NCBI GenBank assembly: GCA_963713615.1
Contig: CAVQMM010000001.1
Coordinates: 2,784,001 to 2,848,000 of the forward strand
Direction: 5' to 3'
Source: an uncultured Chlamydiae bacterium
Lineage (GTDB): Bacteria > Chlamydiota > Chlamydiia > Chlamydiales > JAJFMA01
Length of the DNA: 64,000 nucleotides
Shown: positions 232 through 3,990 of the stretch, piece by piece
How positions within the stretch are numbered: position 1 is the stretch's first letter
How the letters are laid out: each line of letters begins with the position of its first letter
Position numbers and translations under genes: made by a program
The notes under the pieces: model-generated
What the model saw: the letters and a program-made list of their open reading frames with translations, nothing else
The model's database searches: none
What the model was told of the DNA's origin: nothing

Positions 232-1011
232 TCACGAAATGAGACTCGCAATAGAATGTCGCAATTTGCTCCAAAATGTTGCGGGCTCATAACGCAGAAA
301 GACGAGCTGATCCCTATTTGGTATGCGCTTAGAATACCTTAAACGTTGATATCGAAGCTCTACCAGCATATCCTTAGTGGGTTCCCAAGCCTTGACGTCA
401 TCAGCAGCTTTCTCCAACAAACCACTTAAGAGGGCTTTTTCTTCAGCCTTAATGGGGCCATGAAAGAAAAATCTGAGTTGGATTTTGGTATTAGTCTGCA
501 TAATGGCAACGGCGCGCAGAGCTGGCGGTACCCGCTCAACAAGCGCATCCTGAGTAATCAGCCTTACACCTAAGAGTATGTCTTCAGAGGTAAGCTCTTT
601 TAATGATTTTAGAAGGTATTGGTGAGAAGCAACAATCTCCCTAGGAAACTGATCAGGATCGTCCAAAGAAGCCCAATATTTAGCTTCCTCTTCATCGCGA
701 GGAACAGAGGATTCGTACCGCATGTACACACACGCTCCTAAATGAGGCGGTGAATACGGAACATCGACCCTAATAGCATCATAGATGACTTCAATATGCT
801 CACCATCATCGTGTTTTATGTCATTCAAGAGAGATGCCATCGCTTCTTCATACAAACTGCGATCTAATCCTTCAAGAATTCCGTGATGATAAAAATATAC
901 CAACGCAACACGCTCGAACACTTGAACAAACACGGCACGAAGATCAGGCCAAATACGCCCTATCAATGCGGTCTGAACGGAAAGCCTGAGCTTAGCTAGA
1001 GACAGCGTCAT
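232..1011 (-). CDS. Candidate toxin immunity protein, two tandem ~100-aa repeats
   Basis: Two copies of AL-x-x-x-(I/V)-(W/P)-P-x-LRAV...(Y/F)F(Y/F)-x-x-G...RYE. Start placed at MTLSLAK (ATG 1011) by similarity to MALSVRY of the upstream paralog. Lies downstream of a toxin gene. Confidence 0.7.
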   Translation of the reverse strand: MTLSLAKLRLSVQTALIGRIWPDLRAVFVQVFERVALVYFYHHGILEGLDRSLYEEAMASLLNDIKHDDGEHIEVIYDAIRVDVPYSPPHLGACVYMRYESSVPRDEEEAKYWASLDDPDQFPREIVASHQYLLKSLKELTSEDILLGVRLITQDALVERVPPALRAVAIMQTNTKIQLRFFFHGPIKAEEKALLSGLLEKAADDVKAWEPTKDMLVELRYQRLRYSKRIPNRDQLVFLRYEPATFWSKLRHSIASLIS

Positions 1012-1715
1012 TCTGGCTACCCCCTGAAAGTGTTTCAGGATTGGGCTCATAGCGAAAATAGACCGCTCGGTAAGTTTTGGGCAACCACTCAGGATAGTCT
1101 AGCCTGATTAACGTCGGTACAATGGCTAGTCCCTTGGAAGGAGACCACGATGCCATCTCGATCGTCAATTCGGCGATTGTTTTATCTACAAGCGATTGTT
1201 CATTGCGCTGAATAAGGCCATCGAAATAAAAGTATACAGTAAGCGTACCATTTGCTACCTCAAAGGCTACCCTGCGAAGGTTTGGGGGTACATGGCCTTG
1301 CAACGCAAAACCGATGAGCATGTCAAGGTCTGCTTCCAAATATTTCCCTTTGGGATCTAGTTCTAAACACCTTTTAAGGTATTCACGGTCCAGAGTCTTG
1401 GAATAGGCTATGGGTTCATGCCTAAAGAAGACACAACACCCCAACTGCGGAGGCCTCTTGGGGAAAGTCTACGCGAACAGTGACAGAACTACAAATATTC
1501 CACCTTCCCCGGTCAAAACCGCAATCCGCGAGGATTTCAGTGAGGATGTCGGCTGCAAGTTCCTTACCAAGCTCATCGATAGGTCCGTGATAGTAATATC
1601 CCACGTCGAAGGAGTTTTCAATACAATCAACATAGACAGCACGTAATGCAGGCCAAACATGTCCTAAGAGCGCTGTTTGAGCGGATAGACTGAGGTATCG
1701 TACAGATAAGGCCAT
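992..1715 (-). pseudogene. Paralogous two-repeat candidate immunity protein split by a +1 frameshift at 1460-1463
   Basis: ORFs 1422..1715 and 992..1444 join as ...VRVDFP/KRPPQLGCCVFFRHE if one C of TTTCCCC is removed. This matches IRVDVPYSPPHLGACVYMRYE in the paralog. The ATG overlaps the toxin stop (TAATG). Confidence 0.7.
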
Positions 1716-3244
1716 TATTTTCTGAACTCAAAAAGAATAGGCACGATGTGTACTCCCTTTTTTGAATAGTGTATCTCGCCGATAGTTGTTGCGGTTTTTG
1801 CTTTTGTCTCGCGGTCCACAGCATAGCCAATCATCTCTCCAAAGTCTACAGCCTCTCGATAACCTGGCTCACCAAATTTATTTTTGTTTCTTGTTGGCAC
1901 TCCTTTGCCCCCATACTTGTCTACTAGCCCTTGTGCATCTGGATGTGTTAAGATGCTCCGCTTAGCGTCATAGTTATGAGCGCTTGGGACATGCTTATTT
2001 TGTTTGTCCCACTCAATTTTGAAGCGGCTAATTGTCTGCTCTCGAGATGCAAGATGCTTGGCTGATTCGGCGATGATTTTTTCGGCATTAGCTTCAGAGA
2101 CCCTCATGGTGTCAAGGAGAACTTCACGGTTAGCATTGCGCAGCTTGCTTAGATAGGTTCCCCCCTTGATGCTAACCTCTGCCGCTAGTAAATCAATGCC
2201 ATATTTGCCCAGGGCATATCCAAAAAGCTCAGCACGCTCGCTATCTGAAAGAGTTTCGTAGTGGTCAGCCAGCATGCGTAGTTCTACGATACAATCATCC
2301 AGCATGGCTTCGTCTACAGACTGCATGAACAGAACGGTTTGCACCATAGCATCGTGGCTACAGTTGATAAAATTATTCAGTGAGGCGCCAGGATCTTGGG
2401 CACAAGTCCACAATGCAGTGCCAATACCTCTTAGGGTATTCCACAGGCAAGGAATGATCTCCTTAACTGAATCAACGGCACCTGAAGTCAAACTACTAAG
2501 AAATGTATCGGCAAATTCGGTCGAGGTTTTGAGCTTTACTGTAGCTAGTTGTTTTCGAATCCCTGAGCTGTCATAGTCGCTCAAAGCCGCTTCATAATCT
2601 CCTGATTCAAAATGGGCTACTGCCCTTTGGAAATAGGCCTGCTTATTTTGGGGATTTTTTTGAATGAGATCGGAAAGAACGTCAATAGCCACGTCATACT
2701 TCAAAACCTGAATGAGAGCCTCTCCTTGTGCACATTGCATGTCCGGTGTGAAAGCCTTAGGTGATCCACCATGACCTATAAAGGACTCAAGGTTAGCGAC
2801 GCATCCTTCATAGTTTCCCTTATCAAAGCAGATGCGTCCTCTTTCATAGTAAGCGCTGAGATGACCATGTTTAGCCGCACAATCGGTGTAAATTTCAGAA
2901 AAAATTTGGGAGGTCTCCTGCCATCCACTGAGGAGGATATTGACACCTGGGGGATCGCATCTGTCCAAGCATTCTCTAAAGACATTGGATAGATCGGTAT
3001 AGGTGTTTTTATAGAGCACCTGCTTTTCTGCTAACTCCCAGACTGAGCTGACATAAGTGGTTCTAAAGAGACGTCCACCAGCGCAGTGTGCATCATAAAT
3101 ACTACAGGCTGCACAACTCTGAGCTTTGCGGATGTCGTTGCCATGCTGGGTACAAAAACGAGTCGTAGCAGCATAACCCAGTCCAAAACAACACGTTGCA
3201 AAAAAGAATGCTAATAGAACAATCCGTTTCATCTTGCTTCTCAT
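1715..3244 (-). CDS. Secreted TPR-containing polymorphic toxin with C-terminal Ntox50-like (predicted RNase) domain
   Basis: GAGG SD before MRSKMKRIVLLAFFFATCCFGLGYA (signal peptide). TPR-like helices (AYYERGRICFDKGNYE, AYFQRAVAHFESGDYEAA). C-terminus KQNKHVP..HNY...RSILT..DAQGLVDKYGGKG...EAVDFGEMIG...TTIGEIHYSKKGVHIVP fits the toxin type 50 pattern. Confidence 0.8.
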   Translation of the reverse strand: MRSKMKRIVLLAFFFATCCFGLGYAATTRFCTQHGNDIRKAQSCAACSIYDAHCAGGRLFRTTYVSSVWELAEKQVLYKNTYTDLSNVFRECLDRCDPPGVNILLSGWQETSQIFSEIYTDCAAKHGHLSAYYERGRICFDKGNYEGCVANLESFIGHGGSPKAFTPDMQCAQGEALIQVLKYDVAIDVLSDLIQKNPQNKQAYFQRAVAHFESGDYEAALSDYDSSGIRKQLATVKLKTSTEFADTFLSSLTSGAVDSVKEIIPCLWNTLRGIGTALWTCAQDPGASLNNFINCSHDAMVQTVLFMQSVDEAMLDDCIVELRMLADHYETLSDSERAELFGYALGKYGIDLLAAEVSIKGGTYLSKLRNANREVLLDTMRVSEANAEKIIAESAKHLASREQTISRFKIEWDKQNKHVPSAHNYDAKRSILTHPDAQGLVDKYGGKGVPTRNKNKFGEPGYREAVDFGEMIGYAVDRETKAKTATTIGEIHYSKKGVHIVPILFEFRK

Positions 3245-3577
3245 GTTATTCCTCTCAGATCGCAATCTGGTTCTAACATTTGCCATAGACTGTAAACTCT
3301 TTTCTGAGATTCGTGCAAAGATAAAATTGGATTTTATTCGTAAGAGACTTCCCCTTCCCCGTTTATGAGCTTCTTTCTCACACGATCCCACATAATCTCA
3401 CATAGGCCTGATGTGAGAAAAAGGTTTTGTACGGCAAGCACTACATTCTCTCCCCTCTCCTCCTTCTCATCAGGGCGATCGCATCTAAATTTTTGACTAG
3501 GTATTATATCTCCTCGCCATCCATACTATAGAGGAGATAACAATGTCAGCAGCAGAGCGTCTTAAGATTGTTTTTCA

Positions 3578-3820
3578 GGTTCATCCGGTTTTGTAGGCCT
3601 TAGGTGAGAGGAAAGAAATAGGATTTACCACAGAGAGCACCGAGACGCAGAGATCGGAGAGAGAGGAAGGGAAGAACATGACCTATTAAGATCAAAAAAA
3701 CGATCTCTTCTTTCCTCTCTCTCCGATCTCTGCGTCTCGGCGCTCTCTGTGGTAAAATCCTAAATCCTCTCCCTGCTAACTTCTGCCTTTGTAGTCAAGT
3801 CCTACAAAACCAAATGATCC
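3578..3820. mobile_element. Second MITE nested in the ISAs1-like element
   Basis: 20-bp imperfect IR GGTTCATCCGGTTTTGTAGG / GGATCATTTGGTTTTGTAGG. 8-bp direct repeat GTTTTTCA at 3570-3577 and 3821-3828. Confidence 0.75.
3619..3762. repeat. Long hairpin (~57-bp arms, ACCACAGAG..ACGCAGAG type)
   Basis: TAGGATTTACCACAGAGAGCACCGAGACGCAGAGATCGGAGAGAGAGGAA pairs with the arm at 3706-3762. Confidence 0.85.
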
Positions 3821-3990
3821 GTTTTTCAGCAAGCAGAACAAGATGAAAATGTCGGCTGAGTTCCTGTTTCGACTCGTTAGTCAAGGAAATTAAGATGCGA
3901 TCGCCCTGTCCTTCTCATCCCCCTCTGTGGTAAAAATTCCGCGCTTATGACACAATCATCAAGCAAAAATGAATTCGCGAGGAACAGGTC

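Follow-up and report, generated by a model that had tools for sequence, protein, structure and literature searches.

A three-gene locus in the genome of an uncultured Chlamydiae bacterium raises the question of what a toxin gene followed by several putative antidotes does in such an organism and against whom it would be directed. It lies in a stretch of 64,000 nucleotides (contig CAVQMM010000001.1, positions 2,784,001 to 2,848,000), here called the window, within which all coordinates are given except for those that refer to the genome contig (C1) or to fetched loci of relatives (L-numbers). On the minus strand, the gene of a predicted toxin precedes two genes for putative immunity proteins (Table 1). 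A first-pass annotation made from the sequence alone had recognized in the toxin a signal peptide, a Cys/His-rich segment, tetratricopeptide repeats (TPRs), a helical region and an Ntox50-like tip, all of which are borne out by the sequence and by matches in Pfam, the signal peptide as a prediction. Our analysis identifies the locus as a polymorphic toxin system, with a shared carrier, variable tips, downstream genes that match the tip and orphan cassettes in relatives. We consider it probable that the operon encodes a toxin that is secreted and delivered into competing bacteria and that its four immunity domains, which resemble MafI2, protect the producer.

The character of the tip is defined by its match to Ntox50 (PF15542), which in the profile search proposed in the first-pass annotation spans toxin residues 410-502 and the entire model (92 of 92 positions, E 8.2e-26, 91 bits against a cut-off of 22.2). 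The tip matches YxiD of Bacillus subtilis (E 1.5e-9) and MafB2 of Neisseria meningitidis B16B6 (E 5.6e-4) in sequence, and its modelled fold superimposes on both, with a Z-score of 14.1 and a root mean square deviation (rmsd) of 2.5 for 97 aligned residues of YxiD and a Z-score of 13.0 and an rmsd of 2.0 for 91 aligned residues of MafB2. YxiD (PDB 9V8I), the closest tip in sequence and fold with 41% identity upon structural alignment, is described in excerpts of PMC12700104 as a metal-dependent tRNase in which K446, H447, H521, K524 and H528 are each required for tRNase activity and toxicity, and all five are kept in the aligned positions of the chlamydial tip (Table 1). Excerpts of PMC9970974 report RNase activity also for MafB2, with three essential histidines. 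From these relationships, the tip is predicted to be an RNase that cuts tRNA or other RNA.

The genes behind the tip encode a domain that is related to the inhibitor of MafB2. A profile built from 32 downstream domains, including repeat 3 of this locus, matches MafI2 (PDB 8HHJ chain A) with an E-value of 9.8e-7 over 89 of 97 positions, and the model of repeat 3, with a predicted local distance difference test (pLDDT) value of 91.6, superimposes on MafI2 with a Z-score of 12.5 and an rmsd of 2.2 for 95 of 99 residues, the next entry scoring 8.4. MafI2 was found by the profile alone, as a phmmer search of the second immunity gene against the PDB returned nothing, and the protein collection lists PF26541 on the same gene. 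All four repeats match the profile (E 4e-29 to 3e-19), the comparison of folds covering repeat 3. The match of profile and fold thus implies that the immunity domain, and likewise its pairing with an Ntox50 tip, is already known, and the candidate immunity domain of the first-pass annotation is a relative of a structurally solved immunity protein of Neisseria. Among the repeats, which had been paired as 1 with 3 and 2 with 4, the former are the most similar (41 of 101 residues identical, score 195), whereas the latter form a weaker pair (31 of 98, score 121) that ranks next, with repeats 1 and 4 (35 of 94) scoring 90. A co-fold of the tip with repeat 3 alone gave a score of 0.01 and is counted neither way.

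If the system is polymorphic, its carrier should be found with different C-terminal tips, a check that had been named beforehand. Such homologs were found and their downstream genes change to match. In a first full-length search, 11 of 11 carrier matches (query included) ended in Ntox50, besides two phage minor-capsid fusions, and this search by itself would have argued against polymorphism. A search with the helical region that precedes the tip (2036-2530) located 261 places, which are spread over 152 of the 401 genomes searched in the phylum (about 38%). Fetching 131 loci around the stronger of these places yielded 136 carrier open reading frames (ORFs) after removal of duplicates and, with 12 truncated ones dropped, 124 full tips: 85 Ntox50, 17 RVMPG-type, 16 Ntox35-like, 3 RFDF-type, 2 DUF6883 and one LHH/colicin DNase, with shares that are biased towards Ntox50 since the query came from an Ntox50 carrier. 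A seventh and an eighth class are represented by L191, whose tip resembles PDB 6D7Y (E 1.4e-8), which we take to be a CdiA toxin, and by P0178 (KHG-type). The Ntox35-like assignment falls below the cut-off in three of eight tips scanned, and in the one DUF6883 locus scanned the tip is followed by a DUF4926 gene. No match in Pfam was obtained for the RVMPG-, RFDF- and KHG-type tips.

On a quick tree of the carrier, which was calculated from the TPRs and the helical domain of 112 rows and leaves 37 of 108 forks open, the six tip classes require at least 13 changes, compared to a possible minimum of 5 and to 35 in shuffles; switches of tip class recur but are clustered. Within a class, variation outpaces this switching, and a recent swap of tips is seen. 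In one genome, the carriers of L016 and L034 are 100% identical, with tips that share 61% and downstream genes that share 15% and are unrelated, while the identities of carrier, tip and downstream gene amount to 97%, 56% and 45% between L052 and L057 and to 93%, 51% and 31% between L043 and L045. Of the 26 genomes from which two or more tips were fetched, 8 combine tips of different classes.

Tip and antidote are coupled. Of the 81 Ntox50 tips that keep both the KH and the HxVP motif, 78 have a MafI2-like domain that begins no more than 200 bases away (32 of these 78 having contributed to the profile). Such a domain is found within 2.2 kb of one of the 39 tips of other kinds, each class of which is followed by a gene family of its own. 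Four Ntox50 tips do not pass the test for the two motifs: L001, a paralog in the same genome, and L036 have lost both motifs and have no immunity gene, the frameshifted L040 has kept it, and L131 carries EH instead of KH, with the immunity gene at a distance of 300 bases.

The antidotes are also found in excess of the toxins. Of the 76 Ntox50 loci that offer 1.1 kb of room or more, 44 have at least two immunity domains, in stacks of up to five, which places the four domains of this locus at the high end. Orphan cassettes of tip and immunity gene are found in the relatives L071, L012 and L078, and in a genome of the same genus two single-domain immunity genes accompany a full toxin, while 3 kb on there is a truncated carrier that bears a second Ntox50 tip, together with three further immunity genes. 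Matches to the immunity profile occur in 123 of the 400 genomes scanned, 34 of which lack a match in the helical search; 28 of the latter are still free of a carrier by profile and 19 are without Ntox50, and several such carrier-free genomes keep just a stub of the tip ahead of the immunity gene.

These observations bear on the target of the toxin, for which both co-infecting bacteria and host RNA had been put forward. The orphan and stacked immunity genes make the evidence lean towards bacterial targets. Were the protein instead an effector released into the inclusion or the cytosol of the host to cut host RNA, its immunity genes would guard the producer prior to export. Chlamydiae meet the cytoplasm of their host far more surely than they meet competitors, and a type II secretion system is present in the genome. 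Parts of PMC3482391 describe TPRs as common in host-directed effectors of endosymbionts, but they also take missing immunity genes as the mark of toxins directed against hosts. Moreover, immunity at the loci studied here tracks catalytic competence, is stacked and persists without a toxin, and the toxin family did not turn up in any of the 30 genomes of f4, a chlamydial family with small genomes, all of which renders a host-directed role unlikely.

The helical search returned none of the 30 genomes of f4 (1.0-1.2 Mb), which we infer to be the family of animal-pathogenic chlamydiae, and no helical-domain profile match was found in 16 of them upon rescoring. The helical-domain profile collects 693 clusters at 50% identity, the best 150 of which comprise 107 with Ntox50, 20 with Ntox35-like and 5 with other tips besides 18 that are truncated. 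In a collection covering all species, 38 loci are labelled as chlamydial (28), uncultured bacterium (6), Verrucomicrobia (3) and Planctomycetota (1), and the Verrucomicrobia labels are probably wrong since one cluster at 90% identity mixes them with Parachlamydiales proteins. Members are named 'tetratricopeptide repeat protein' or 'polymorphic toxin type 50 domain-containing protein' in the databases. A scan of the genome with the single toxin protein as query gave no match, and sequencing runs contain at most 17% of the words, so that we claim no habitat. The carrier is absent from the plasmid, phage and viral-contig collections searched, which speaks against a selfish addiction module that kills cells upon loss of the antidote and is not delivered to others. 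Patchy spread, variable neighbours, frequent decay and the lack of a dedicated secretion gene beside the toxin would fit such a module. However, a signal-like N-terminus, as found in 81 of 105 relatives, would not be expected of it, neither a carrier of 400-600 residues nor a gene order with the toxin in front is typical of type II toxin-antitoxin systems, and non-cognate copies of an immunity domain would be useless to it, so that we regard this explanation as very unlikely.

The N-terminal part of the protein would fit export. The toxin begins with a basic stretch that is followed by a hydrophobic stretch and an AxA-like site, and a home-made heuristic, used in place of a standard predictor, assigns a signal-like N-terminus to this toxin and to the 81 of 105 full-length relatives mentioned above. 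For comparison, it is positive for 309 of the 1164 long genomic ORFs and for 5 of the downstream genes, of which 109 were scored. The Cys-rich segment that follows (residues 18-128) contains nine Cys and four His. Among the 105 relatives, the region between signal and TPRs varies between 69 and 362 residues, falls into 18 similarity clusters and contains on average 3.7% Cys. This variable region likely serves target recognition and may form disulphides and bind a receptor. A swap of this region in the manner of the tip was considered and rejected: it is highly variable, yet it tracks the helical domain in close pairs, and our claim is thus limited to fast change. The TPRs are marked by a match to TPR_16 at residues 172-225 (E 2.5e-9), and in two sets of relatives with sufficient upstream sequence the helical domain is preceded by a TPR block without exception (110 of 110, and 133 of 133 among the best 150 profile clusters).

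A route across the outer membrane may be offered by a GspF-type gene and a secretin that lie together at C1 2.707-2.715 Mb, with a second secretin elsewhere in the genome. That these type II genes are unlinked to the toxin, at a distance of 70 kb, would agree with a toxin that is retained on the surface or in the periplasm and acts upon contact or fusion of chlamydiae or upon lysis of the producer, as a device of kin recognition in a shared inclusion that does not depend on type II secretion. The structure model, which forms one compact unit (pLDDT 83, predicted template modelling score 0.81), and the example of MafB, which has the same pair of tip and immunity protein and which according to excerpts of PMC4287609 leaves the cell by an unidentified route and is found in vesicles, point in the same direction, but inspection by eye of the listed carrier N-termini revealed no evident lipobox-type or membrane anchor. 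We consider retention highly improbable; it would leave the antibacterial role unchanged and differ from secretion in the mode of delivery only.

Between the TPRs and the tip lies the helical domain, for which no Pfam family was found in a scan of 26 such domains. Fold searches of the N-terminal region and the helical domain within the full model retrieved nothing specific beyond generic TPR solenoids (Z up to 8.5), and since neither part was folded alone we do not claim a new fold. A clue to its function is provided by the one non-chlamydial match, a Planctomycetota Rhs protein (L169), where a homolog of the domain follows directly after the DPSG motif (hhalign probability 97.6%, 115 columns). 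The released cargo of Rhs toxins starts right behind this motif, and the position of the homolog suggests, in this single case, that the domain travels with the tip and is a likely entry domain. In the same protein (L169:1156-3879), the cargo that begins with the homolog continues with an unassigned tip and is followed by a small hydrophobic gene. Similarities in the ESM Atlas to carriers of MafB and EndoU (0.84-0.91) are leads only and not support.

Comparison with known systems places the locus close to MafB2/MafI2 in its components but not in its carrier. As far as the excerpts of PMC9970974 and PMC4287609 extend, both share a Sec signal peptide (here predicted), an RNase tip of the Ntox50 type with three histidines, a gene of MafI2 fold right behind it, orphan cassettes, a carrier confined to one lineage and an unassigned route across the outer membrane. 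In contrast to MafB, the chlamydial carrier has neither the DUF1020/MafB domain nor mafA and instead contains a variable N-terminal region, TPRs and the helical domain; its immunity domain is often doubled or fused, and its hosts are obligate intracellular bacteria. No Pfam match to DUF1020/MafB (PF06255) was obtained for the toxin and the 26 helical domains at E-values up to 1, and a genome search for PF06255 gave no match, but gave none in its control either. The closest tip belongs to a different context, as the YxiD carrier is Gram-positive and YxxD, in the excerpts of PMC12700104, has an Sm-like fold unrelated to MafI2. Although the helical domain is common to one Rhs protein, the chlamydial carrier lacks Rhs repeats, the barrel and a recognisable self-cleaving protease. 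The earlier statement that the carrier is unlike those of CdiA, Rhs, MafB and LXG toxins is upheld by Pfam and NCBIfam scans of the toxin, in which none of their domains, nor that of MuF, was found. The parts of PMC3482391 that we consulted (Zhang et al. 2012) name chlamydiae among the bearers of Ntox50 and Ntox35 and count TPRs as one of the repeats of toxins exported by Sec and type II secretion, so that members may have been seen in 2012, but these parts contain no description of a TPR carrier family in chlamydiae, of a helical domain ahead of the toxin or of an Ntox50 immunity protein. No description of the family was found in the literature, mostly outside subscription journals. The toxin and immunity parts are thus known, while the Sec/TPR carrier, which is widespread in environmental chlamydiae, is apparently undescribed.

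Several observations weigh against a secreted antibacterial toxin. The control provided by dead toxins consists of two sequences from one genus and may reflect one event, and the intact-looking Ntox50 tips of L011, L016, L056, L141 and L202 (three from the set of 81 and two from elsewhere) are followed by an unrelated gene of 220-246 residues. There is no orphan tip at this locus, and immunity genes without toxin may be remnants of decay in genomes many of which are fragmented. The tip classes are strongly clustered on the tree, with switches that are rarer than in a freely mixing system. The signal-peptide heuristic has a background of 27%, and the helical domain is only mildly hydrophobic (best mean over 19 residues 0.84) and has no specific structural match, so that the case for its role in entry is drawn from one Rhs homolog picked by its motif. 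Genes for secretion or for a receptor are not conserved next to the toxin, the sole recurring neighbour family being the downstream one, and no conserved upstream partner family was found in the flanks that were fetched (short in the case of long carriers). The sole RNA run covers just 200-458 and is no demonstration of transcription, and the toxicity, secretion and expression of the toxin are predictions.

With these points considered, we still favour a secreted antibacterial toxin, whose action could proceed as follows. The protein would be exported by Sec and released via the encoded type II secretion system, in vesicles or upon lysis of the host cell. Its Cys-rich N-terminal region would bind a receptor on related chlamydiae or on other bacteria that share the host cell, and the helical domain, perhaps cut free at the junction with the TPRs, would bring the tip into the cytoplasm of the target, where it would cut RNA by means of its three histidines. 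In the producer, repeat 1 might act as the cognate inhibitor that blocks the active site as MafI2 does, whereas the other repeats might cover Ntox50 variants of other strains.

Table 1. Features of the toxin-immunity locus, in window coordinates.
Feature	Position	Strand	Basis or remark
Toxin gene, 509 aa	1715..3244	minus	ORF, Pfam, model
Predicted Sec signal peptide, ~25 aa	3170..3244	minus	sequence and heuristic
Cys-rich helical N-terminal region	2861..3169	minus	fastest-changing part of carrier
TPR block, ~three repeats	2549..2860	minus	Pfam
Conserved helical pre-toxin domain (165 aa), family marker	2036..2530	minus	no Pfam family
Ntox50 RNase tip (predicted): K417, H418, H492, K495, H499 (509-aa numbering)	1739..2017	minus	Pfam, fold, alignment
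Immunity gene 1, two MafI2-like domains (~1412-1715, ~1040-1339), frameshifted here	992..1715	minus	
One-base insertion near end of repeat 1	1457..1460	.	reading frames and contig of run X3
Immunity gene 2, 259 aa, two MafI2-like domains (709-1011, ~286-590)	232..1011	minus	

The toxin gene starts at an ATG preceded by an AGAGGA ribosome-binding site, with a second ATG at 3232 as an alternative that would shorten the protein to 505 residues. The three genes follow each other closely, as the toxin stop is coupled to the next start by TAATG, as annotated, and the two immunity genes overlap by 20 bases. The claim that both contain two repeats holds for gene 2, but gene 1 as assembled is split into a frame of 97 residues and another that runs to 992 by one extra base near 1458; when read with an X at the break, it contains two repeats, as gene 2 does. 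A contig of 151 bases from an independent run (X3) spans 1370-1521; it is one base short at 1458, the place predicted by the reading frame, and is otherwise identical, the evidence consisting of one contig at a depth of 2 from the one of four runs that covers the site. Gene 1 is thus probably intact in nature, and the insertion is probably an assembly error or a strain variant. The GC content of the locus is close to the genome mean (47%), and its neighbours are a divergent ispF upstream and a convergent gene downstream that by eye appears ankyrin-like.

Further observations concern individual components. The paralog of the toxin (L001:9209-10660, G000:C1 ~3887210-3888660) is 38% identical and has lost the histidines of KH and HxVP in a whole reading frame; it may be kept for a non-toxic role, such as that of a decoy or a receptor blocker. 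Beside it, a gene that appears ferritin-like by eye (L001:8537-9089) is apparently split by a short duplication or frameshift, a possible assembly error. The gene of 220-246 residues found directly behind the tip in five loci, and also present in L028, L032 and L101, has no Pfam or NCBIfam match and is a candidate for a second, unrelated Ntox50 immunity protein. In L038:1171-1947 and L012, MafI2-like domains are fused to what is left of an Ntox50 tip, which sits between or ahead of them; this offers a visible route from an orphan cassette to a two-domain immunity protein. The RVMPG-type tips (L066, L093, L111, L117 and 13 more) form the second most common class and dominate in family f9; they have no PDB match, their downstream gene is SCO4402-like below the cut-off, and their ESM Atlas matches to unnamed clusters and Ntox37 are mere leads. 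The RFDF-type tips are those of L021, L089 and L109. A secretin domain (G000:C1:3343099-3343620) is located in an open frame of 2767 residues, unusually long for a secretin. Upstream of the operon, an intergenic inverted repeat (3624-3756) with 45-base arms that are 98% complementary is nested within two more inverted pairs (3471-3908 and 3578-3820); with five near-full copies and dozens that are partial elsewhere in the genome (99 matches counting both strands), it constitutes an element that resembles miniature inverted-repeat transposable or repetitive extragenic palindromic elements.

Chlamydiae live only inside eukaryotic cells and, to our knowledge, are not known for fighting other bacteria. 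In a wider reading, to which we assign an even chance, the family would constitute a phylum-wide interbacterial weapon of environmental chlamydiae, in which a Sec-exported TPR carrier combines a variable targeting region and an unnamed entry domain that is also found in an Rhs toxin with at least eight interchangeable warheads of nuclease type and their matched antidotes, three of these warheads being without a Pfam family. It would be aimed at co-infecting chlamydiae or other bacteria in shared host cells and be absent from the small-genome lineage of animal pathogens. If this is true, the presence of a toxin family with swapped tips and hoarded antidotes in about 38% of the sampled genomes would imply that intracellular competition is common and shapes chlamydial genomes. 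Excerpts of PMC6520448 describe that amoeba-dwelling chlamydiae protect their hosts from other intracellular bacteria by a mechanism that is left open, with interference by polymorphic toxins raised as a possibility. The carrier family provides a concrete candidate for such symbiont-mediated defence of amoebae. It also brings to light a pre-toxin domain that has no name, a further candidate inhibitor of Ntox50 that is unrelated to MafI2, and three classes of tip that match no Pfam family.

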